Below the pieces are notes generated by a model, which did not search any database, had not been told where the DNA came from, and saw only the letters and a list, made by a program, of their open reading frames with translations. A program made the translations under genes and the position numbers. Shown piece after piece: positions 12,189 through 64,000 of a DNA stretch of 64,000 nucleotides. The stretch comes from a virus. Lineage: Duplodnaviria; Heunggongvirae; Uroviricota; Caudoviricetes. How positions within the stretch are numbered: position 1 is the first letter of the stretch; every line of letters starts with the position of its first letter. The stretch covers positions 87,000-150,999 of the IMG/VR virus record IMGVR_UViG_3300032293_000813; one strand, given 5' to 3'.

Positions 12189-12557
12189 TGGTGGAGGTGG
12201 AGGGAGTCGAACCCTCGTCCAAATACGGATTTAATAAACCTCATTCACAAGCTTAGTTAGTTTTTCTTAACTAACAAAATAGATAAAGATTTATACATTC
12301 GTTATCATTAATGTTCCAATTCGATTTCGGGTTCAATTGGTCTCCACCTGAGTTCACATTCTATTTTAAGTCCCACGATGTGTGCGGGAGGGATTAGGCT
12401 GCTATAGCGTAATCAGCACCAACGAATGCCATAGCATCTTCGAAGGTCATTGTAGATAATTCTACGTCGTTTATTGTTCGATAGGTATTTAAGGATTTCC
12501 ATCTAACCCTGCTTGCAACTTACCAACTCATCGTACCTGTCAAAACCAGGCACCCCC
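12189..12557 (-). ncRNA. ssrA: tmRNA (SsrA), one-piece, ~369 nt
   Basis: The 5' end GGGGGUGCCUGGUUUUGACAGG resembles E. coli GGGGCUGAUUCUGGAUUCGACGGG. The 3' end GGACGAGGGUUCGACUCCCUCCACCUCCACCA resembles E. coli GGACGCGGGUUCAACUCCCGCCAGCUCCACCA; the acceptor stem pairs GGGGGUG with CACCUCC. An internal tag frame ends ...GGU GCU GAU UAC GCU AUA GCA GCC UAA (GADYAIAA*). Confidence 0.8.
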
Positions 12558-12559
12558 AA

Positions 12560-14140
12560 TTATTTTTTGTAGAATATAAATATCGGTTCATATTTGTAGA
12601 ACTGACCACCTATCTTCATACTATTTTTAACACCACTTAAATCAACTCCCGTCATAGGAGACATCGTCATTCGGATTTTACCTTGATACTCCATACCTAA
12701 TTCGGTTAGTATATCAATTGAATCCTGTTCCAATGGATAGAAACTTTTTCCTATCTTAATATCAGCAATGTTCCATAATATATATCTATCATTTCTTAAA
12801 TACTCAAATGCAGTTACCAAAGTAGGTCGTAAAAATCCATCTCTCCAACTTTCGTAGTTACCAAATTTCTTAAATGATTGTGTTTCATCATCAGAATATC
12901 TTTCTCTATCAAAGTAAGGAGGAGAAGTAAATATAAAATCTAATTGACCTTTATACTTTTGGAATCCTTCTTCTTCACTAATAATCTCTGAACCTGTTCT
13001 ATAAATCTCATAGGTATTTTTATGCCCCCAAAATGGATTACATGCTCCAGGTATTTTAGAGTTAAAGAATTCTGCTAAGTATTCATATCTACTCTTACCA
13101 ATTTCAGGAATATAATTTTCTGTATTTGGGTCATTACCAATGTAGTGAATATTTCTATCATCAACCGATAATGCACCTAATATTCTACCTCCCCAACCAG
13201 AAGATGGGTCATAGATATTAATTTGTTTTTGTTCTTTAATGTGGTTTGTATATTTCTGATACAAATACTTTGCAGTTAGTGGTGGAAAGTTTACAGCTGC
13301 TTGTGTGCCCATTCCAATTCTAAATGCCGCAGTTGCCTCAGGAAAAATAGTTTGACCTAATGGATACCACTTTAATTGAATAGGTTGTTTTTCCAATTCA
13401 GTTAACGCATCAATATCTTCTCCCCAATTAGCAGTTTTAAGTGATGAAATATGTTTATACTGAATCACACCTGCTTTATATAATTCCTTCACCTCTTCCG
13501 CAGTAATTGGCAGAGATGGAATCCTACTATCAGTTTGTGCTAAACAGAAATCATGCCCATCCCATACATCACCATTCATCCATTTCTCAATCCATTCTTT
13601 ACCACTTGCCAAATGCGTATTGTGATGTTCTTTATTATCCTTCTCCAATGTTTTAGAGAAACGATACATAGCATCTTGTCGTGTCAATCTCCTCATTTGT
13701 TTTGCAAACTCAGGAAGAAATTCATCGTTACAAAATATATCGTAGATAGATGGTTTTGGTTTATCATAAGAAGAACCACCGATTCCCGTCTTATACATCG
13801 CGGGAAAGAATTGATTTACAGGTGTTGCGAATTTATTAAAATTAAAAATTACATCATTACCCTCATCATCTTTCTCCTCAAACTTTTCCACCTTATAGGT
13901 TTGTAGTTTAGAAAATTGGTCTATAATCTCAGCCTCCGAAGAACCGATACGTGGAGGTGCTCCTGTTTTGTTCCACTCATCTACTACGGTCTTACGGAAC
14001 ATAGCAACCCACTCTTCAAATTCGGTAAGTGTCATCTTAAGAACATCCTCATATTTTAAGTTAATATGGGGTTCGTTAAAATAATCACACTTTTCGTAAA
14101 AATATTTCTTATCTGACATTATATGTTTATTAGAAATCAA
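12560..14140 (-). CDS. DNA amino-methyltransferase (N6-adenine or N4-cytosine) with large N-terminal domain
   Basis: Motif I YDPSSGWGGR followed by motif IV IFTSPPYF. Confidence 0.7.
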   Translation of the reverse strand: MISNKHIMSDKKYFYEKCDYFNEPHINLKYEDVLKMTLTEFEEWVAMFRKTVVDEWNKTGAPPRIGSSEAEIIDQFSKLQTYKVEKFEEKDDEGNDVIFNFNKFATPVNQFFPAMYKTGIGGSSYDKPKPSIYDIFCNDEFLPEFAKQMRRLTRQDAMYRFSKTLEKDNKEHHNTHLASGKEWIEKWMNGDVWDGHDFCLAQTDSRIPSLPITAEEVKELYKAGVIQYKHISSLKTANWGEDIDALTELEKQPIQLKWYPLGQTIFPEATAAFRIGMGTQAAVNFPPLTAKYLYQKYTNHIKEQKQINIYDPSSGWGGRILGALSVDDRNIHYIGNDPNTENYIPEIGKSRYEYLAEFFNSKIPGACNPFWGHKNTYEIYRTGSEIISEEEGFQKYKGQLDFIFTSPPYFDRERYSDDETQSFKKFGNYESWRDGFLRPTLVTAFEYLRNDRYILWNIADIKIGKSFYPLEQDSIDILTELGMEYQGKIRMTMSPMTGVDLSGVKNSMKIGGQFYKYEPIFIFYKK

Positions 14141-14173: not shown

Positions 14174-15202
14174 TTATTCTCTAATTGTATCCAACGTTAC
14201 ACAATGAGGCCCACCACTAAAGGTTCTAGCATGTCTCATACGGACGGGTATAGAATCTACCCCATACTTCTTTAATTCTTTCATAAGAGGTATCTGTCGT
14301 TCCTCTACTATCATCGTATTCTCATCATAAGAAAGAGTGTTCATTCCCAACCAGGGTGATGCTTCTGCCCAATGTTCTAAACAATTTGTTTCCACCATCT
14401 CAGGAGAGTATATAACCTCCCACGATTGAAAGATTTTAGGTAGGTTGGTATGATTTACCCTTTTAGGATTAACTAAGACCAGTCCCTCTCTAATGAGTAC
14501 AAAAGTGGTATCTATATGGATGAATGCATATACATCTTCTATAGGATGTACATTATACTTTTCTTTCATATTTTCATCCAACCATTTTTGAAGATATTCG
14601 GCTCCTGCTCTGTTGCCGGTATTAGATATTAGGAATAGAATATCGTTATTACACTTAAGAATATTAGCCGCATCAAATACAGGCTCATCATTTCTTAATG
14701 TAGGGCCTGGTAACAATCCCCTATCATATATCGAATCTAATAATTTTGGTTTAGGAAAATCTACCCAATGTGATTCATCGAATAGATGTTTAAATGCTCT
14801 CGTTTCATTTTGTCGTTGGCGGAGAGCCATAGGAGTAGCAATAACTTTATCTTCTATAACTAACATAGAATCTCTAGGGCAGTATCCGTAGTAACCATCT
14901 ACTTCCCAATTTTCAGTTGAATAGGTTTCACTCCAATCGATTAAAGCAGGCCTGTGAACTTTAACACCTAACCCTTCTAATGTTTTACTTAAATTGTTTA
15001 GGTCTTCCGTAGTTTCTTCAATCATCCAATTAGGATAAGTTCCATATGGTATCTTACGAAATTGGTCATCTGTGTAATTAGCGTAATCAATCGTATGTAA
15101 TGATTTATCTCTTATAGTAGGAATCTGAGCAAATTCAGGTCTTCCTACGATTATCTCTTTTAGTTTCCCCCACTCATTTCTTATATAAGGTTTAATCTTC
15201 AT
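14174..15202 (-). CDS. L-arginine:glycine amidinotransferase (AGAT/CyrA/SxtG family)
   Basis: Collinear with human AGAT: [20 protein letters not shown] vs [29 protein letters not shown]...CPRDSMLVI...[36 protein letters not shown]; C-terminal catalytic SGGPHCVT vs GGGFHCWT. Confidence 0.85.
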   Translation of the reverse strand: [342 protein letters not shown]

Positions 15203-20395: not shown

Positions 20396-21643
20396 CTATA
20401 TTAATTCTTTTATTGAAACTTTTTTATTTTTCTTAAAAATCATCTGATAGTTGTAAACAAAAAAAGTTAATTCAGTTTCCTCTACTTCTTTTAAATCAAA
20501 TATTTTTAATAATTCAGCATTCGTTTTTGGTATAATATTATTATTATCGTCTAATATTAATTTTAATTTTTCTGGTATTGGCATTTCATATGATGCTTTC
20601 CAAAACGGAGTATCAAATCTTTCAGCTAAATAGTGATATCTAACGAACATCATGTTTTGCTCATTGATACTAGAGCAGGTATCATTAAATCTATCTCTAA
20701 GTGATACATCAAACTTAGCACTTATTAATCTCTTTAGTTGCATTATAGTTGACATCAATGAGGTAGCTTCCAACGGTTCTATGAATCCATATGATAGCCC
20801 AATTGCAACACTATTACCTATCCAACTTCTTTTATGTGTACCTGGCTTAAAATCAAATACTTTTTGTATAGTAATTTCTTTACCTATGTAATCTTCCACT
20901 TCTTTCTTAGCTTCTTCAACCGTAATAAATTCTGAATTAAATGTATATCCACATCCCCATCTATGTTGCAATGGTATCTGCCACATCCAACCTGAATCCA
21001 TTGAAATCATATTAGTGTGGGTTACATCTCCTATTGCATATTGATTTTCTTGTGGTAAAAAATATGCCATAGCTCTATTCAATAAAAGATATTTAGAATA
21101 ATCAATCCATTCATCATTGTGAACCTTACCTATAATAACTCTAGCAAAACCACTGCAATCAAATACAAAATCTATACCCTTAATATCAATTCCTTCCTTA
21201 AGTGAAATGGAATGGATATCCTCACCTGTTTTATCTACCACATCGACCTCACCTTCAATCCACTTAACACCTCTTGATAATGATACTTCTTTTAAGTATT
21301 CCGCTACCATTCTTGCATCAAAATGATATGCGTAATTTTGTTTAAACGCATTTGGTTTCGGTCCTGTAAAAAGATGCGATGAACTTTTCCCATCACCTGT
21401 CCAATTTGATAGTGTTAACCCTAATTTACTTGTGCAACCTGTTCTTTTAAAAAAATCATTTTGGTTTATTTCCAATAAAGATAAAAACGCACCAAAGTTA
21501 GGAGTAGCTCCTTCTCCTGCTCCTAATATTCCTATCTTAGAACTTTCTATTAAAGTAACAGATGCATCTTTCCAAAATTTATTAACAGATAGGGCGGTTA
21601 GCCACCCCGCAGTTCCGCCTCCAATAACAATTACATTTTTCAT
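20396..21643 (-). CDS. flavin-dependent halogenase (tryptophan-halogenase family)
   Basis: N-terminal VIVIGGGTAGW FAD motif plus WMWQIP (WxWxIP) motif. Confidence 0.7.
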   Translation of the reverse strand: MKNVIVIGGGTAGWLTALSVNKFWKDASVTLIESSKIGILGAGEGATPNFGAFLSLLEINQNDFFKRTGCTSKLGLTLSNWTGDGKSSSHLFTGPKPNAFKQNYAYHFDARMVAEYLKEVSLSRGVKWIEGEVDVVDKTGEDIHSISLKEGIDIKGIDFVFDCSGFARVIIGKVHNDEWIDYSKYLLLNRAMAYFLPQENQYAIGDVTHTNMISMDSGWMWQIPLQHRWGCGYTFNSEFITVEEAKKEVEDYIGKEITIQKVFDFKPGTHKRSWIGNSVAIGLSYGFIEPLEATSLMSTIMQLKRLISAKFDVSLRDRFNDTCSSINEQNMMFVRYHYLAERFDTPFWKASYEMPIPEKLKLILDDNNNIIPKTNAELLKIFDLKEVEETELTFFVYNYQMIFKKNKKVSIKELI

Positions 21644-34942: not shown

Positions 34943-35302
34943 TTAAAGTCCCTGCTCTCTTCGTAAATCATATTCTTCTTTTTCAAACTCCGAATATTCC
35001 ACCACCTTTAAATAAGGTTTGAAAGCAGTTTCGTAGTACCCTCTAAGGTTACCATAATTAATCATCGAATCGATGAAGTTCTTACGAACGAAAGTCATAT
35101 CTGAACTACCAAACCCCTGGTCTTCAGGCCAATCCGAATAATCGGAAGCAACATCTTCTAAGGAGTTAAATACTGCATCGGAATAGGTGATAACCCTTCC
35201 GGTAAATGTACCCACTACGGGGAAAGCGTTTCGAACGATATCATACCCTTCGATTAAGGAAGAATGTTCGTGGACTTTAGCTAGATTGAATGGTAAACTC
35301 AT
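34943..35302 (-). CDS. hypothetical protein
   Basis: ORF tiling; promoter cassette 17 nt upstream. Confidence 0.4.
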   Translation of the reverse strand: MSLPFNLAKVHEHSSLIEGYDIVRNAFPVVGTFTGRVITYSDAVFNSLEDVASDYSDWPEDQGFGSSDMTFVRKNFIDSMINYGNLRGYYETAFKPYLKVVEYSEFEKEEYDLRREQGL

Positions 35303-37531: not shown

Positions 37532-38899
37532 TCACTCATTATTAGATATATAGAAAAATGTAGGATACTTAGGAGATACTATTTTTTGACGAATCCTCTC
37601 ACTGGATAAACCGAAATAATCTGCCGCTTCTTTGAGTGAGTAAAATTGTATTCCATTACATTCTATGATAGGTATTTCACATCGTATATCACAATCTTTT
37701 AAACTATTTTCATTTTCATCATAGCTTACATCGGTTACAGGTGTAGCTAATTTAATCCAATGAGAATATATTTGAGAATTAGAAGATATTCTATTTCGTA
37801 TCTCGGATTCATCCAACCCAACATATTTTGCAATATGAACCGCTGATTCAAACAGATACCCATCTATACTATATTTTAAAATTGGTTTAGTTTCCTTTCC
37901 TATTATTTGCCAATCTTTGTATTTTATTTTATGAGAAAGGCATCGTCTTTCTACTTCAGATGCTACTAACTCATTTGGATTAAGTGAGATTGCTACTTCT
38001 CTGAATGATTTGTATTGTTTCCCATCAACCACACATTTGTAAGTCCCATCCCATTCAATATCCTCTGTTGCTAAATCGGGGTTTCCTTTTACGAATACTA
38101 ATACGTTTTGGTGAACCGATGCTACCTTACGATTGCGATTGAAATATGTATCCACAACTCTTCCGGCTTGATGTTGTGCGTTAAACAAAATCATATCGTT
38201 ATAGAAATTTAACCCAGCTTTCTCGCACGCTTGTATAGTTTTGTTTACTAACCCTCTATACTTTCCTATTTTATAATCTCCGGTCTTTGATACCTCTCTT
38301 ACTTCGGATACAACTACTATAAAAAATCTATTGTTCTTTAACTTTTGTGCCGATTTATCTAATATACGAAAATAAGTTTCATCAAATTCACTATCATCCA
38401 TATTTGATAAATCTCTATCGGAATCCGAATATTTTTCTAAACTATAATAAGGTGGACAAGTAAATACCAAATCATACTCTCCAGTTATTTCCGTATTGAT
38501 TGTATCTAATACTTCATCACTATCACCCACCATCCAATTTGGTTTGGTTGATTGCTTTTGGTTTTCTTCTATTTGTAATTTGGAAAGGTCTATTCCATCG
38601 TATTGATATCCCATTTCAGTTGCCACAATACCCCTAACACTCCCACCAGCAAATGGGTCTAATATCATTCCACCTTTAGGTGTGAACCATTGATACATAT
38701 GCTCACAAAGGGTTGCATCGAATATTGAAACAGATATTTCATCAGTATCCCAAAATTTACTTTTTGATACAGTATCTTCTCTACCGAGCTCAGATGTAAT
38801 ATTGTAAGTTTTAATCCAATACCGTTTACGGTCTTGCCATTCTTTAGTTCTTGTATCTAATATGGAGAATGGTTTTATCATATAAATGTAAAGATACAA
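37532..38899 (-). CDS. DNA amino-methyltransferase with C-terminal NUMOD1-like DNA-binding repeats
   Basis: Motif I DPFAGGSVRG then motif IV VFTCPPYY. Two C-terminal repeats I(D/N)G..F.S...A.Y.GL.ES.IR..I. Confidence 0.7.
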   Translation of the reverse strand: MYLYIYMIKPFSILDTRTKEWQDRKRYWIKTYNITSELGREDTVSKSKFWDTDEISVSIFDATLCEHMYQWFTPKGGMILDPFAGGSVRGIVATEMGYQYDGIDLSKLQIEENQKQSTKPNWMVGDSDEVLDTINTEITGEYDLVFTCPPYYSLEKYSDSDRDLSNMDDSEFDETYFRILDKSAQKLKNNRFFIVVVSEVREVSKTGDYKIGKYRGLVNKTIQACEKAGLNFYNDMILFNAQHQAGRVVDTYFNRNRKVASVHQNVLVFVKGNPDLATEDIEWDGTYKCVVDGKQYKSFREVAISLNPNELVASEVERRCLSHKIKYKDWQIIGKETKPILKYSIDGYLFESAVHIAKYVGLDESEIRNRISSNSQIYSHWIKLATPVTDVSYDENENSLKDCDIRCEIPIIECNGIQFYSLKEAADYFGLSSERIRQKIVSPKYPTFFYISNNE

Positions 38900-38951
38900 A
38901 AAAAGTTTGGAATTTCCAAACTTTCTTACAATTATATTTTATATTAATTGA

Positions 38952-39890
38952 TTAAAAATCCAATTCGGTGTCAGTATCTAAATTCATTACATACTTTTCT
39001 TCTATATCGGATAGATTTCTTCTGAATCCTTTCAAAGTTTCAGTTCCTTTTTTTAATTGAGTTAATAACGCTTCTTTTTTATTCAAATCCTTTTCTGTAA
39101 AGTATTTCTGTGATAATTCTTTTTGTGCATCTTCTAATTCTCTAACTTTTTTAGAAACGGCTAAAAACTTAACATACATCTTATTTATACCAACTTCGTT
39201 TACGGATTCGCCAAACTCACCTCTACCATCTTTTTCTGCTGCTCTCATTGCACCACCACTATTTCTCATTTCAGGAGAGGAGTTTTTAAGATATCGAATA
39301 ACTTCAATTTGTTTTGCTAATAAAACTTTATATAATTTAACATATTCTTCTTTAGAAACTAACTCATTTTTTAATAAGAATAATATAAGTGCCGGTTGTT
39401 TACCTCTAGTCTTTACATCAGATTGAGTAGTACCATTTAATTTAGCTAAATCATTTGCACTTCTTACTCTATATTCATGTTTATTACCTACTATCTTAGT
39501 TACAGGAGTTTGTGCATAAGCCATAGCTAACTCTAAAATTTCAGTAGGTGTCATATTTTTATCGGTATATTGTTTTTTACCTAAATCATATGTGGCTTCG
39601 TTTACCGATTCTTTTATAGGATTCATCTTCTCATCCGATACCCAATATGCAGTACCGCCACCGATTGAATGTTGGAACATCTTTTCCATTTTCTCAGCGT
39701 ATTTCTTAGCATCATTATATGAATTAAATACTTTTGGTTTATCGGTTGAACTAAATGATTTTTGGTCAAATTCCTTTTCCAACCCCTTACCCTGTCCCCT
39801 ACCTCTATTGTAGGTTACATAGTATTTCCTTTCGTTTAATGCATCTTTTAATCTCATAGGTATAAATATTAATTTATTTTGGTTTCCCAT
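38952..39890 (-). CDS. hypothetical protein
   Basis: ORF tiling. Confidence 0.4.
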   Translation of the reverse strand: MGNQNKLIFIPMRLKDALNERKYYVTYNRGRGQGKGLEKEFDQKSFSSTDKPKVFNSYNDAKKYAEKMEKMFQHSIGGGTAYWVSDEKMNPIKESVNEATYDLGKKQYTDKNMTPTEILELAMAYAQTPVTKIVGNKHEYRVRSANDLAKLNGTTQSDVKTRGKQPALILFLLKNELVSKEEYVKLYKVLLAKQIEVIRYLKNSSPEMRNSGGAMRAAEKDGRGEFGESVNEVGINKMYVKFLAVSKKVRELEDAQKELSQKYFTEKDLNKKEALLTQLKKGTETLKGFRRNLSDIEEKYVMNLDTDTELDF

Positions 39891-40422
39891 AAATCCTCTT
39901 TACAATTCTCTTATTAACCTTAGATAACTTACGAGTATAATACCCATCTCCTATGAATTCGGGATTCTTATCACTTCCCAATATATCTATTATCTTCTTT
40001 TCATCCCTAACAACAGGTGCTCCTGATGATTTCATAATATCCTCCATCTTCAAACTAGCCTCAATGAACCACCCATTTGTATTACACAATTGGATAACTT
40101 TTTTAACTACATCTGATTTTGCACTCTTCTTATTGTTAGTACCTAATAGGGCAATCTTATTACCGAATCTAGTTGGTTTGTATATGATAAAAGCATCTGG
40201 CTTCTTATCCGAATCCACATCTTTCAATGCAGTTGCTTTGTATTTGGATTGGAGTTCGGAAGCAGAATTAGCTGATAAATCCATACCTGCATTTAAGTAG
40301 GTAGTTTTATACATATCCCATATCTCTTCTATACCTTCATCATCTATTGATTTTAAATCTAAGGTTACCCACTTATTAGGTGGTATCTCTAACTCATTTA
40401 ATATTTCAGTTAATCTTATCAT
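39874..40422 (-). CDS. putative packaged internal protein A (N-terminal MIRLTEILNE; paralog of 40419..40967)
   Basis: Shared N-terminal decapeptide and C-terminal ...GDGYYTRK...GKPK similarity to the next gene. Confidence 0.5.
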   Translation of the reverse strand: MIRLTEILNELEIPPNKWVTLDLKSIDDEGIEEIWDMYKTTYLNAGMDLSANSASELQSKYKATALKDVDSDKKPDAFIIYKPTRFGNKIALLGTNNKKSAKSDVVKKVIQLCNTNGWFIEASLKMEDIMKSSGAPVVRDEKKIIDILGSDKNPEFIGDGYYTRKLSKVNKRIVKRIYGKPK

Positions 40423-40967
40423 CGTGGTTTTCCAAACATCATTTTAGTGTGAATAGTTCCTGCAATTTTTCTATCATATGAACCATCACCATTCCATTTA
40501 AGTTCTTTGCCCTTTAATGCTCTACGAACGGCATCTTCATCGTTAACAGGTACTAACCCCTTAGCCATAAATATATCTCTCATCTTACCGGAAACCTCTA
40601 CATAATATCCACCCTTCTTTAACTTATCCACCTGATGATTCACCGCTGCCGATTTACCTGCCGAAGAACCATCGTGCCCTAATGCAACAAATTTCTTACC
40701 AGCGGTTTTATACTTAGCTATTGTAACCGCATCTATCTCATCATCACCATCTACATCTATTACATCAAAGAAATCACCCTCATCAGGAAGGTCTTCTTTA
40801 TCTTTCACATTAGAATGACCACCTATGGGTGCATAAGCAGTTGAAATCAAATCAAATATTATTCTCTTAAAACGAGATAGTTCGGAACGCAGAATTGGAG
40901 TCCACGTATTTTGTGGTATCTCAAATCGTTTGTCTGTTTCTTTAAGTAAATCTTTTAATCGTATCAC
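40419..40967 (-). CDS. putative packaged internal protein B (MIRLKDLLKE)
   Basis: Tandem paralog of the previous gene; C-terminus ...GDGSYDRK...FGKPR. Confidence 0.5.
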   Translation of the reverse strand: MIRLKDLLKETDKRFEIPQNTWTPILRSELSRFKRIIFDLISTAYAPIGGHSNVKDKEDLPDEGDFFDVIDVDGDDEIDAVTIAKYKTAGKKFVALGHDGSSAGKSAAVNHQVDKLKKGGYYVEVSGKMRDIFMAKGLVPVNDEDAVRRALKGKELKWNGDGSYDRKIAGTIHTKMMFGKPR

Positions 40968-41533
40968 AATGTAATTTTTTTATCTATATCGTATTTTTCA
41001 TAAAAGTTATTAAGAATGTTTACTAAATCATCTACCATTCTTTTATGTTTCTTTTGAGAATCAATATCTCCATCTGCGAAATCCGTCTTTGTTAATATAG
41101 TAGATATTATCTCTCTAGCACGCATACCTTGTACTGAAAACTTTTCATTCATTTCTTTATTTTCTTTCCATAATAAATTAGAAAATTTTGAATACATATA
41201 TTTTTCAACCAATTTGTTTTCTAATTTTTTAAACTTAGCAGATTGGTCTCTTTTACCTATATAAGCATCCTTTTCAGTTTCTAATTTTATCTGATGTGTT
41301 ATCTCGTGTATAACGGCATATTCCGGGTCTTCCATTCTGTTTACATTAAATGAAATGTAAAGAGCTTTCATTGTTTTAGGATTGAACGTTATTGCAGCAC
41401 CACCCTTACCAATATTATTAAATTTTACAGGCAGAGGTGTTATTTTTAAATCCTTGCACAATGCTTCATAATACACTTTTATATTAGCAGGATTGCGAAC
41501 ACCTTCGGATAATATATCGCTTAACTTTATCAT
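40964..41533 (-). CDS. HExxH zincin-like protein C with MIKLSDILSE N-terminus (ORF extends to 41551; internal ATG preferred)
   Basis: IHEITHQ motif; using the internal Met leaves a 4-nt gap to the upstream gene and restores the family N-terminal motif. Confidence 0.45.
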   Translation of the reverse strand: MIKLSDILSEGVRNPANIKVYYEALCKDLKITPLPVKFNNIGKGGAAITFNPKTMKALYISFNVNRMEDPEYAVIHEITHQIKLETEKDAYIGKRDQSAKFKKLENKLVEKYMYSKFSNLLWKENKEMNEKFSVQGMRAREIISTILTKTDFADGDIDSQKKHKRMVDDLVNILNNFYEKYDIDKKITL

Positions 41534-41537
41534 ATTA

Positions 41538-42074
41538 TTAAATATTATCAATTATATAATCTAACGTATCATCCTTACCTTTTAAATCTTTCCAATGTTT
41601 GGAGTTAATAAACATAGGATATAAACCTGTCATATTAGTATCAGCTTCCATTTCCCACGGTAGGTTTCTATATGCGGAAATATCTGATTTCATTAATTTA
41701 CCATACTCCTTTGCATCGATATACTCCTTACCTTTCCATAGGATAGAAGTATAATCTTTGTTTGGTAATAACTCACCTTTGGATACCTGCTTAACGTGAG
41801 TTAATTCGTGTATCATAGATTGGATAATTCTTTTATATGATTGGTTAGGATTAAAGTGTAAATAGAATTTATTATTATCTACAGAGTTTGAGTTCAATGA
41901 TATATCACCAATCATACCTGCTTTATCTTTTTTCTTTACTATAATCTTAGCTTTAAACTTATACTTATCCATCATAAAAGAAACAACCGATTTAACCATT
42001 AAGGCTTCATATGGTTTCAATTTTAATGATGTTCCAAATAGGTCTTCCGATAGTATATCTCTTAACTTAATCAT
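41538..42074 (-). CDS. HExxH zincin-like protein D with MIKLRDILSE N-terminus (ORF extends to 42164; internal ATG preferred)
   Basis: MIHELTHVKQ; the internal Met start abuts the stop of the upstream gene at 42076. Confidence 0.45.
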   Translation of the reverse strand: MIKLRDILSEDLFGTSLKLKPYEALMVKSVVSFMMDKYKFKAKIIVKKKDKAGMIGDISLNSNSVDNNKFYLHFNPNQSYKRIIQSMIHELTHVKQVSKGELLPNKDYTSILWKGKEYIDAKEYGKLMKSDISAYRNLPWEMEADTNMTGLYPMFINSKHWKDLKGKDDTLDYIIDNI

Positions 42075-42075
42075 A

Positions 42076-43134
42076 TTACCATTTTTTGCAACTCCAATAT
42101 CTAGCTTTTGTTCTAGGTCCTGGTTCATCACAATTGTGTCTAGCTCTAAATGCTTTTCTCGCATCCGGATTCGATTTTCTTATTCTCATTGTTTCCTCAC
42201 CTGCCGCAGCCGCCGAAGTACCACCGTGTCCAAAGTTTACCTTAACAACATTGCCGGCAGGATTCTTTACATATACTTTAAACTTCTTAACATCACCTTG
42301 CATTGGTTTACCTAACTTAACTTCTCTACCCTGATACTCTGCTTCGTTTATCTCCGTAGTATATCCTTTTAAGAAATTAATAAAATCTTCTTCATCTTCA
42401 TCCTCTACATCTAACTCATCGTAATCATCTGTATTATCGTGTCCACATTTATGACAAAGATATGGGTCTTTACCACCATCGGATAAATCCCATTCCCATC
42501 CACACTCTGCACATTCTACTGATTGAGTTTCATTTTCATTAACAGGCACACAATTAGGAACTTGTCTATCTCCTTTCTTTTTCATACCAACTTGCTTATA
42601 TCCATCCCAACAAGCCTCATCTAATGCATTAGGTTCACCTTCATTAGCTACTTTCCAACCACCACCTTTACCTTTATAGTTTTTAGCCGCCCATCCGTTT
42701 GCATATGCAGATGGATATACATCGAATTTCTTTTTAGCCGCTGCTATAGATGCTGCCCATTTTGCTGGGTCAGTTGGAACATTCTTTTCTAAAAATAGAT
42801 TTAACTTCTCTTCTAAATTCATACTTTCATTTTTATCAACTCCAGTTTTTACAAATACAGGAGTTTGACCTTTCTTTTGCTCTCCGCCCTTTTTAGCATC
42901 ACCTGCTTTTGTTTGAGCAGTTTGTTTTCTTTTTACAAAGGATGCTCTACCATCTTTACCTAACTTAGCCGCTTTATCATTTGATAAACACGCTACATAT
43001 GATGAACCTTCCTCACTATCCCCACACTTACCAACCTTCTCTCCTTTGGAATTATACCTATCCCATCCACCGGTTGGACCTTTACCGAACCACTTACGAA
43101 GGTCTTCTGACAATATGGATGTTATTCTAATCAT
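42076..43134 (-). CDS. putative packaged internal protein E (MIRITSILSE), Lys/Gly-rich with Cys cluster and acidic stretch
   Basis: Shared N-terminal motif; VECAECGWEWD...CHKCGHDN Cys cluster; DEDEED acidic run. Confidence 0.45.
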   Translation of the reverse strand: MIRITSILSEDLRKWFGKGPTGGWDRYNSKGEKVGKCGDSEEGSSYVACLSNDKAAKLGKDGRASFVKRKQTAQTKAGDAKKGGEQKKGQTPVFVKTGVDKNESMNLEEKLNLFLEKNVPTDPAKWAASIAAAKKKFDVYPSAYANGWAAKNYKGKGGGWKVANEGEPNALDEACWDGYKQVGMKKKGDRQVPNCVPVNENETQSVECAECGWEWDLSDGGKDPYLCHKCGHDNTDDYDELDVEDEDEEDFINFLKGYTTEINEAEYQGREVKLGKPMQGDVKKFKVYVKNPAGNVVKVNFGHGGTSAAAAGEETMRIRKSNPDARKAFRARHNCDEPGPRTKARYWSCKKW

Positions 43135-43466
43135 TATAATTTAGCTATTAATGATTCATAATCTAACTCAATTGTAAACTGGTATGAACCCTGCTTATGT
43201 CTCGCATAGAAATCTAAACCGGTCTTCTTTTTTACATATTTGATAATCTCATCATATACTTCATTCACACTATACTTTTCTACCTTAGCCAAATCACCGA
43301 TAGTAGCAGGTAATAATAGTATTGTATCCGATTTAGGTGAAGTTACTATAAAGTTTGCTTTGAAGAACTCTAATTTCTTAGCTTCCGTAATTGGGGCAAC
43401 CTTAGATGGTTGTGTATTGATAACTGGTATAGAAACCACATTTGATACAATATCTTTTAATCTCAT
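43134..43466 (-). CDS. hypothetical protein (N-terminus MRLKDIVSN loosely related to the motif)
   Basis: ORF tiling. Confidence 0.4.
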   Translation of the reverse strand: MRLKDIVSNVVSIPVINTQPSKVAPITEAKKLEFFKANFIVTSPKSDTILLLPATIGDLAKVEKYSVNEVYDEIIKYVKKKTGLDFYARHKQGSYQFTIELDYESLIAKL

Positions 43467-43500
43467 AGTATTTTTCTTATATACATAAATATTAGGTTTT

Positions 43501-43528
43501 AAATAAAAAAGGGAGTATCAACTCCCCT
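43501..43528 (-). terminator. rho-independent terminator
   Basis: Minus strand GGGGAGT-TGAT-ACTCCC followed by TTTTTTATTT, immediately after the stop of 43528..43956. Confidence 0.6.
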
Positions 43529-43956
43529 TATATAATCTTATCTAATGTTTCTAAAAATTGCGGATTACCTATAGTATATAACTTACCCTCAACCTCATAT
43601 ATTATGTTTTTCCCATTACCTAACGCCCACCTCAATACCCAATTCAATACAACCGAATCCATTTTTTTACTATGTTCCATTACATCATAATAGGAAAGGG
43701 TATCATCGGTTGGATGCTTCTTATGTGAAATGACAACATTTGATAGAGTTGGTTTCATCCAATCCGGTATATCTTCATTCATCAACCATTCACAATTGTA
43801 GGAACGACAAGGATGTTGGGGTCTATTATCATATATAGTACACCCACATTTAGTATCATAGTGAGTACATTTAATACCATTACCCATAGGTACTCCAAAG
43901 ATTTCTGCTTTGAATCTACCATCACAACATTTGCCACATTCACCACACTCTCTCAT
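43528..43956 (-). CDS. Cys-rich protein (putative metal-binding)
   Basis: MRECGECGKCCDG...CTHYDTKCGC...CRSYNC. Confidence 0.4.
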   Translation of the reverse strand: MRECGECGKCCDGRFKAEIFGVPMGNGIKCTHYDTKCGCTIYDNRPQHPCRSYNCEWLMNEDIPDWMKPTLSNVVISHKKHPTDDTLSYYDVMEHSKKMDSVVLNWVLRWALGNGKNIIYEVEGKLYTIGNPQFLETLDKII

Positions 43957-63537: not shown

Positions 63538-64000
63538 TTACATTCCAAATCCACCTCCAGGAGGCATCATTGGTGTATCCTTCTCTTCTTTCTTCACACC
63601 GATAACACACTCAGTTGTTAACAATAGAGATGCAATACTTGCTGCGTTCTCTAAAGCCAAACGGGTTACCTTAGTTGGGTCAATGATTCCGGCAAAAACC
63701 ATATCAACATACTCTTCAGTTCTTGCATTGTAACCATAGTTGCCTACACTACCCTTAACCTCATTGATTACTACTTCAGCAGAACCTCCACCATTTTGAA
63801 CAATAGTTCTTAGAGGTGCTTCTAATGCCTTCTTAATAATCTGAACACCGGTAATGTAATCAGTATCTTGTCCGGTTAAATCTATCTTAGTTATATCTTC
63901 TAATGCAGTTAGTGCTCTGATTAAAGCTACTCCACCACCAGGAACAATACCTTCAGCTACCGCTGCTCTTGTTGCGTGTAATGCATCATCTACTCTATCC
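63538..64000 (-). CDS. groEL: chaperonin GroEL, C-terminal part (5' end beyond window edge)
   Basis: Minus-strand translation ends ...[25 protein letters not shown] with upstream [28 protein letters not shown], the canonical GroEL C-terminal region with a Gly/Met tail. Confidence 0.9.

Follow-up and report, generated by a model that had tools for sequence, protein, structure and literature searches.

Seven genes with a common N-terminal leader

The stretch of DNA analysed here (the window) comprises 64,000 nucleotides of an uncultured marine tailed virus of the Caudoviricetes, positions 87,000 to 150,999 of IMG/VR record IMGVR_UViG_3300032293_000813. It has a GC content of 32.8%, and its minus strand holds nearly all of the genes. 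Among these is a block of tightly tiled genes whose products begin with a shared leader of about ten residues. The original prediction placed five such starts at 39874-43134 and proposed that they are capsid-targeting sequences ending in a prohead-protease site, as in the internal proteins of phage T4. Each of the five was found on the minus strand as stated. Their general form is MI(R/K)(L/I)xx(I/L)LxE, with residues 8-10 reading LSE in three of the proteins and LKE and LNE in the other two.

The block extends beyond these five genes. The flanking genes P_b, on the upstream side, and P_a, on the downstream side, add starts of the same type and bring the total to seven (Table 1); the leader-like start of P_a also ends in LNE, and the N-terminus of P_b is identical in the near-identical relative L327 (IMG/VR contig 3300032213_002044). 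A relaxed start pattern, searched over the whole 64 kb, returned exactly seven matches, all of them block genes, whereas 200 shuffles gave 0.16 matches on average and never more than 3. For P3 and P4, internal methionines had been proposed as the true starts, and this choice holds: it leaves junctions of 1-4 nt (TAAtATG, TAAtaatATG), and most gene callers agree with it on the homologs. Furthermore, the dominant length among 120 homologs of P4 is 178 residues, consistent with the internal start.

Behind the leaders, the bodies are as diverse as first described, with two HExxH proteins, two paralogs with GKPK-type tails, and one Lys/Gly-rich protein with Cys clusters. More specifically, P1 and P2 are 29% identical (E 4e-16) and end in GKPK and GKPR, respectively, and past residue 12 no other pair shows significant similarity. 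The two HExxH motifs read HEITH in P3 and HELTH in P4, and the Cys-cluster protein is P5.

One explanation for the shared starts, recent tandem duplication, predicts that nucleotide similarity would extend into the upstream sequence. It ends at the ATG, apart from the stop codon of the preceding gene, and the leaders themselves differ synonymously (Ser as TCA, TCG or TCC; Leu as TTG, CTA, TTA or CTT; Arg as AGA or CGA). Given the differing upstream regions and the lack of relationship among the bodies, recent tandem duplication was ruled out. A signal peptide or transmembrane segment was likewise ruled out from the sequence, the leader being charged, ten residues long and without a hydrophobic span.

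Table 1. Coordinates of the leader block and of the features in and around it, in the direction of transcription
Feature	Position in window	Strand	Description
Terminator-like hairpin	43508..43529	-	9-bp stem with 4 GC pairs, then TTTATTTAAA; closes the upstream operon
ATATTTAT motif	43485..43492	-	18 nt upstream of the P_b ATG; candidate late-type promoter
P_b	43134..43466	-	110 aa; leader-like MRLKDIVSNV, position 10 without Glu; I-T-E at residues 26-28
P5	42076..43134	-	352 aa; leader MIRITSILSE at nt 43105-43134
P5 internal A-L-D-E junction	42616..42627	-	residues 170-173; fused window protein reads ..NALDE, then ACW
P4	41538..42074	-	178 aa; leader MIKLRDILSE at nt 42045-42074; HELTH at residues 89-93 (nt 41796-41810)
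P3	40964..41533	-	189 aa; leader MIKLSDILSE at nt 41504-41533; HEITH at residues 76-80 (nt 41294-41308)
P2	40419..40967	-	182 aa; GTG start; leader MIRLKDLLKE at nt 40938-40967; paralog of P1
P1	39874..40422	-	182 aa; leader MIRLTEILNE at nt 40393-40422; GNAT-like fold (predicted)
P_a	38952..39857	-	301 aa from internal Met; leader-like MRLKDALNE at nt 39831-39857
Terminator-like hairpin	38899..38927	-	13-bp stem, T-run; closes the seven-gene block

Leader exchange and likeness to known targeting sequences

Homologs of the block proteins occur elsewhere with this leader, with another one (MKHIKLFEEFINE or MELRKFIxTTIREYLNE, the latter referred to below as leader C), or with none. The best 120 homologs of P1 (62-98% identity) carry either leader A, MI(K/R/S)LxxILxE, or leader B, MKHIKL(F/Y)E(E/D)F(I/L)NE, and the same (L/F)EIP body follows behind either one. 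In an alignment of 37 sequences drawn from these 120, Glu10, the final residue of the leader, is invariant whichever leader type is present. Homologs of P4 bear leader A, B or C, or no leader at all, and 47 of the 48 distinct leaders in this family keep the final Glu. The P5 homologs of T4-like cyanophages (T4-GC_119, located beside the terminase genes) have no leader and either start at the (D/N)L(R/H)KWF domain or bear another N-terminal domain. Finally, a 635-kb "huge phage" encodes a distant homolog of P1 behind another B-like leader, and the neighbouring genes bear this leader as well. Because homologous bodies bear this leader, other leaders, or none, the leader is a swappable module.

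Recurrent N-termini were also seen in two further genomes. In locus L345 (IMGVR_UViG_3300042691_038651, 12187-32705), twenty genes within 20 kb start with leader-B variants, MKHI(H/K)TFE(S/N)F(L/I)NE, a number well beyond every set of CTS proteins known. In the cultured phage immuto (vB_FspM_immuto_2-6A, MW353175.1, 81.5-140 kb; L373/L374), MKKSQLRxIIKE(E/A)L begins at least four genes, and a second recurrent N-terminus, M(A/E)xNF(N/D)L(K/R)(K/S)FL(V/T)ENKL, begins three to four, one of them directly after the prohead protease. The recurrent N-termini of immuto may be further leader types.

Comparison with L327 shows the cassettes turning over at short evolutionary distance. Its P1 is 98% identical to that of the window, which makes it a very close relative, and its proteins are 97-98% identical to the window's. 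In L327, P5 is divided between two genes, and the downstream half starts MIKLKEILNE and continues directly with ACW; the fused window protein thus retains an L-x-E exactly at the module boundary where L327 has a gene boundary and a leader. P4 is absent from L327, with the breakpoint inside the leader coding sequence, and the KYYVxYNxGRGQG module of P_a is preceded in L327 by an internal ..SLNE. The leader therefore also marks recombination junctions, comparable to the variable internal protein (IP) loci of T-even phages (PMC2839356).

In T4, the capsid targeting sequence (CTS) is the 10-mer MKTYQEFIAE (PMC8442874). Its mutational map assigns residues 4 and 7 to targeting and residues 8 and 10 to processing, with gp21 cleaving after L/I-x-E (PMC9026906). 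To compare the leaders with this map, logos were made from sequences retrieved solely via body similarity, so that the sample is unbiased by the leader. In these logos, positions 1, 2, 4, 7, 8 and 10 were the most conserved, positions 5, 6 and 9 were variable, and the length was ten residues in about 75% of cases. The conserved positions 4, 7, 8 and 10 coincide with the mapped T4 residues, and the corresponding functions are predicted for them here.

The resemblance extends to the overall arrangement. Each is an N-terminal extension of ~10 residues found on unrelated proteins; residues 4 and 7 are hydrophobic, and an L/I-x-E motif closes the extension at position 10. The genomes that encode them are those of T4-type phages with a gp21-family protease, presumably also in the case of the window's own genome, judging from its relatives. 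In both, the genes are clustered and variable among close relatives and encode basic or enzymatic cargo, T4 Alt being a host-modifying enzyme. The differences lie in the sequence itself (MIKLxDILxE versus MKTYQEFIAE), in the presence of at least three interchangeable leader types among the relatives, in the GNAT-like and HExxH cargo, in the much larger families of 5-20 genes per locus, and in the hosts, which are probably Bacteroidota. The EFIAE end of the T4 sequence resembles the EFI(N/A)E end of leader B. A second T4 precedent is gp24, whose first ten residues are removed by gp21 (PMC9958956). This propeptide, MAKINELLRE, shares five identical and four conservative positions with the leader-A consensus MIKLKDLLKE; however, gp24 is a shell protein and not cargo, and the likeness of such short peptides could be convergent via a shared protease specificity.

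Further parallels exist in the giant phages phiKZ, 201phi2-1 and SPN3US, in which head and ejection propeptides are cut after Glu by the prohead protease, paralogous proteins have conserved N-termini (15 residues in SPN3US gp53/gp54), and many internal head proteins are ejected into the host; their propeptides, however, are mostly 80-160 residues long, their motif is (S/A/G)-x-E, and their proteases are more divergent (PMC5694885). Encapsulin cargo-loading peptides are also short terminal peptides that address unrelated enzymes into an HK97-fold shell, but they are usually C-terminal, are not proteolytically removed, and act without a scaffold core or DNA. Hyperplastic IP loci of T4-type phages were reportedly described by Repoila in 1994. 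As in the IP loci of T4-type phages and their promoter-stem-loops, cassettes here are swapped at short conserved junctions, and near-identical phages differ (PMC2839356, PMC4122927). The promoter-stem-loops are intergenic, whereas in the present case the junction is the coding leader and the genes abut stop to start.

Head-gene neighbourhood, cargo and regulation

A degenerate DNA pattern for leader A matched at least 119 stretches in IMG/VR and one for leader B matched 113, and many of the resulting loci carry 3-9 leader genes. Among the 119 leader-A matches listed, 44 stretches also hold T4-like gp17, gp18, gp20, gp21 or gp23. A recurrent gene order was observed, running from TerL through a P5-like gene (with a leader in some loci), the portal, a 291-residue protein, gp21 and a small gene to one or more leader genes, an acidic scaffold-like protein of 400 residues, and the major capsid protein (MCP). 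For leader B, the genes lie between portal and protease in locus L114, and in L050 between a protease-scaffold fusion, the scaffold part of which is rich in YLAE repeats, and the MCP. When IMG/VR loci were retrieved with P5, the homolog was located beside TerL and portal in 47 of 79. An apparent linkage of P1 to TerL in L356, L357 and L366 was discarded, as the P1-like GNAT domain there is internal to a 911-residue NadR-like protein; in L357 (9011-11746) this is a NadR/NMN-adenylyltransferase-like multidomain protein about 4.6 kb upstream of TerL.

A test unbiased by the leader gave the same association. In 80 loci fetched purely by similarity to one gp21-type protease, 66 contained leader-A open reading frames (ORFs), 117 in total and every one on the protease strand, compared with 3 in the shuffled control and 4 at internal in-frame positions. 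Nearly all of these ORFs (106 of 117) lie 0-2.5 kb downstream of gp21, and nine lie between TerL and portal. The protease of the leader loci is a Peptidase_S77 (93 bits) that is 31-38% identical to T4 gp21 through the GEL(N/D)HP and SSRG segments, and the portal is a Portal_T4. The N-terminal LLIE, which is the autocleavage site of T4 gp21, is kept in three of six proteases (L197, L176 and L213) and not in those of L160, L167 and immuto.

If the tagged proteins shared a prohead with such a protease, internal cleavage sites would be costly to them. We compared 400 de-replicated leader-bearing proteins with 3390 neighbours from the same loci. The observed-to-expected ratio of internal [LI]-x-E was 0.95 in the leader-bearing proteins and 1.20 in the neighbours, a difference reached in 0 of 5000 permutations, and the depletion was present in all three size classes. 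With each of the 20 residues placed in the third position, Glu was the most depleted (ratio 0.78), while Asp, Gln, Asn and Lys were not depleted (1.05-1.13). This Glu-specific depletion would be expected if internal cuts by a protease with L/I-x-E specificity were selected against. It provides an indirect test, at the level of sequence, of the proposal that the cargo survives a protease-filled prohead with a single cut at the leader, and is consistent with it.

The cargo bodies could be characterized in part. Pfam and PHROGs searches returned no functional match for any of the seven proteins, and none of them matched an internal head protein of the T4 IPI/IPII/IPIII kind in either database; judged by sequence, the block's cargoes are proteins different from the T4 IPs. 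The AlphaFold model of P1 has a mean confidence (pLDDT) of 89, with residues 1-9 below 50 and outside the confident fold. Its top Foldseek matches in the PDB are all GNAT acetyltransferases, with probability 1.0 and TM-scores of 0.45-0.55. P1 and P2 thus have a GNAT-like fold on the modelling evidence, and their acetyltransferase activity is putative; neither protein has a Pfam match. The model of P4 has a pLDDT of 90.7, again with the N-terminal residues (1-12) at low confidence and outside the fold. HExxH is invariant in 31 aligned sequences, comprising 30 members of the P4 family and the window's P3 (H89, E90 and H93 in P4). Sequence and fold matches of P3 and P4 to DUF6782, BlaR1, minigluzincins and IrrE are weak, and P4 is a putative small zincin.

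P5 is a mosaic of a DLRKWFGKG domain, a Zn-ribbon and a C-terminal domain common to HVA1-annotated proteins, and its domains occur in the terminase/portal neighbourhood of relatives. Some P1 homologs (P0040 and its kin) consist of leader B, a CxxC...CxxC zinc-ribbon (CDNCGWHWD...CHKC), a further ...INE end and then the GNAT body, and this ribbon is the middle of the window's P5 (residues about 205-232). Small modules appear to be strung in series, each with an (I/L)-x-E end. The mature block proteins have isoelectric points of 8.5-9.3.

These cargo properties bear on a narrower alternative, in which the leader does direct the proteins into the prohead core and is removed in that location, but the proteins are assembly components that are degraded or expelled instead of effectors that are injected. 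The location of most leader-A genes of the relatives speaks for assembly components, since they occupy the slot between protease and scaffold/MCP that is the core-protein site of T4, as does the leader-B protein in the portal-protease gap of L114, which is small and very acidic like T4 gp67/gp68. The window's cargoes, however, are enzyme-like, with predicted GNAT folds and an invariant HExxH, and their depletion in cleavage motifs fits survival and not degradation. Furthermore, the cassettes vary among near-identical phages, as the accessory T4 IP loci do (PMC2839356). We consider it unlikely that the tagged proteins are assembly components of this kind.

The block is enclosed by candidate regulatory features (Table 1). 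A second copy of ATATTTAT lies 4 nt upstream of the P_a ATG. In the gp21-containing head modules of relatives, this 8-mer (within TATATTTATA) is about 25-fold enriched upstream of genes, with a peak 20-29 nt before the ATG and often after a terminator hairpin, and the layout of hairpin, T-run and ATATTTAT before P_b is the same as in those modules. Across the window, ATATTTAT shows an overall depletion; of the 14 copies present, 12 lie on the coding strand. It is plausible from this shared layout that the block is co-regulated with the head genes. A scan for sigma-70-type promoters gave a count not above the shuffled expectation.

A second promoter-like motif recurs in the window, TTTGG(A/T)TATAT followed after about 12 nt by (C/T)GTATCTTTAC. 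It is found upstream of the minus-strand genes starting at 35302, 8847, 34050, 14119, 63463, 53445, 48526, 38881, 37219, 6324 and 55359, and no copy lies upstream of the leader block. The Bacteroidota promoter has TTTG at -33 and TAnnTTTG at -7. The resemblance of the window motif to it suggests a flavobacterial host and an early or host-type promoter class.

Several observations suggest that the phage is a large T4-type myovirus. The window encodes PhoH, a tryptophan halogenase, a Band-7 protein and a DNA methyltransferase. The L327 contig, 6-10 kb past the window start, carries Immutovirus-like baseplate genes that are 38% identical (E 1e-140) to those of immuto, a cultured T4-type Flavobacterium myovirus with the gene order TerL-portal-S77 protease-scaffold-MCP, as in the leader loci. 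The 287-kb contig 3300033076_000838 combines the L327-type baseplate arrangement and a homolog of window gene 1103-1822 with a leader-tagged P5a-like gene and an S77 gp21 followed by leader-A genes. Homologs of P4 at 73-79% identity are located on contigs of 248-306 kb. A megablast search with 25 kb of sequence gave no match in INPHARED, an exact 41-mer had no occurrence in IMG/VR, and tblastn with GroEL and with concatenated proteins was uninformative as to the placement of the phage.

Further genes were noted in passing. Window positions 12189-12557, on the minus strand, hold a tmRNA gene for which ARAGORN predicts the tag DVELSTMTFEDAMAFVGADYAIAA; Rfam RF00023 aligns along its whole model with 105 bits. 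Directly downstream of the block, at 37532-38899 (minus strand), an N6_N4_Mtase DNA methyltransferase is fused to I-TevI-like and NUMOD1 DNA-binding modules, and a second, partial methyltransferase-like gene lies at 12560-14140. The tryptophan-halogenase-family gene (20396-21643, minus strand) and an amidinotransferase/arginine-deiminase-like gene (14174-15202, minus strand; 39% identity to the 'inosamine amidinotransferase' of Synechococcus phage S-SCSM2R) are auxiliary metabolic genes in common with cyanomyoviruses. Approximately 10 kb past position 64000, the same phage (L005; ENA scaffold_750) encodes GroEL, GroES, ClpS and a cyclophilin-type prolyl isomerase, as well as a T4-type RNA ligase 1, an ATP-dependent DNA ligase, a Kyano_Gp96-family protein and UvdE, a gene set unusually rich in protein folding and turnover functions.

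A proposed capsid address label and its alternatives

The proposal of a T4-like CTS with a prohead-protease site is supported by the modularity of the leader, its conserved positions, its adjacency to gp21 and the avoidance of the motif in the cargo; all comparative tests carried out here agree with it. On these sequence comparisons, the leader is probably a T4-type tag for capsid targeting that is trimmed by the protease, and it is apparently widespread. The mechanism would be the known one of T4, with new leader sequences.

As we picture it, the phage would be a large T4-type myovirus whose host is probably a flavobacterium, and the block would be a late-expressed array of cassettes in which each gene joins a different cargo to a short N-terminal address label. 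The hydrophobic residues 4 and 7 of the leader would bind the assembling prohead core. After closure of the shell, the gp21-family (Peptidase_S77) protease would cut behind Glu10 of (I/L)-(L/I)-x-E, and the mature, mildly basic protein would stay in the head alongside the DNA. Core binding, cleavage and encapsidation are steps that we infer from the T4 precedent and the comparisons above. The mature cargo would presumably then be delivered into the next host cell, as are T4 IPI and Alt, and by this analogy we infer injection and an anti-defence or effector function. The leader coding sequence also serves as a recombination junction at which cassettes are gained, lost, split and fused.

A number of observations count against this account. 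P_b lacks Glu10, and the cargo proteins are mildly basic, no more. The 64-kb window holds no head gene and no protease; in the window's genome these are presumably present, judging from the gene content of its relatives. Upstream of the block there is no copy of the T4 late promoter TATAAATA, which shows no enrichment either. The cultured Flavobacterium phage immuto and Pelagibacter phage HTVC008M are without leaders A and B, the scan of the latter covering about 129 kb (1-129,385) of its 147-kb genome. Literature searches on the leader strings, on CTS-like leaders and on Immutovirus proteomics found no description of such leaders, no proteomic or biochemical results on a phage that carries them and nothing else relevant. 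L345 has 20 leader-B genes in 20 kb, well above the number of CTS proteins in T4, and such counts may hint at a role broader than encapsidation. Finally, the codons of the leader are skewed: Ile2 is ATA in 79% and Ile7 in 97% of cases, as opposed to 31% for Ile in the bodies, and AAG makes up 78% of the Lys3 codons as opposed to 21%. Leu4 and Leu7 favour TTA, and the codons of Leu8 and Glu10 are body-like. Some nucleotide-level constraint or concerted evolution therefore also acts on the leader, and we read the skew as concerted evolution or as an added constraint of the initiation context.

Taken further, the strong departure of leader codon choice from that of the bodies could mean that the conserved 30 nucleotides are themselves the functional unit, as an initiation or re-initiation context, a repressor operator or a patch of recombination homology, and that the peptide is a by-product. 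The sequence TAA-(N)-ATGAT(A/T)A(A/G) is present at all junctions, the breakpoint that sets the P4-bearing window apart from L327 lies within the leader codons, and the hosts of this clade probably do without Shine-Dalgarno-led initiation, all of which would fit; the codon skew is the main argument for this reading. Against it, residue class is kept across multi-nucleotide changes (Lys as AAG versus Arg as CGT, CGA or AGA), Leu8 shows the full codon spread of the bodies, and there is free variation at positions 5, 6 and 9 but none at Glu10. The leaders B and C of orthologs differ widely in nucleotides and still have the same ...(I/L)-x-E end, the motif is retained at internal module junctions where no initiation takes place, and highly expressed head genes of the same genomes have no leader. 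A nucleotide unit would also leave the [LI]-x-E depletion in the cargo and the adjacency to the protease unexplained, and we judge it quite improbable that the DNA and not the peptide is what matters.

In a further alternative, the leader would act in a process outside the capsid, as a Clp/ClpS-type degron for timed degradation, as a signal for membrane or compartment localisation, or in the co-assembly of a complex. The leader is short and amphipathic, genes for ClpS, GroEL/GroES and a prolyl isomerase lie just past the window, and very large leader families such as L345 go beyond the T4 precedent. Such a tag would, however, leave unexplained the match to the T4 CTS positions, the likeness to the gp24 propeptide, the clustering with S77 protease, portal and MCP, and the Glu-specific avoidance, and the leader has neither a hydrophobic span nor signal-peptide character. 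We consider a non-capsid role very unlikely.

Returning to the leader as a capsid-targeting tag, a wider proposal can be put forward tentatively, as a possibility that we do not yet favour. Interchangeable, lineage-specific labels (A, B, C and others) may constitute a general addressing system of aquatic T4-type phages of Bacteroidota and their relatives, by which each genome would bring dozens of different enzymes into the capsid (GNATs, metallopeptidases and many of unknown function, in up to 20 genes per 20 kb). After trimming by the S77 protease, these would be injected as first-wave effectors.

Proteins injected with the phage DNA act before phage gene expression and are prime candidates for counter-defence and host takeover; they are normally found by virion proteomics on cultured phages. 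If the proposed role of the leader is true, it would be a sequence-only marker of injected phage proteins in metagenomes, and a ten-residue motif would reveal encapsidated cargo from sequence in hundreds of uncultured phages, including new classes of packaged enzymes such as acyltransferase-like proteins and small zincins. The leaders would also provide ready tags for loading foreign proteins into the capsids of non-coli phages. For the T4-type phages as a whole, targeting and trimming of the T4 kind would then be widespread and modular, and not limited to the T-even phages.

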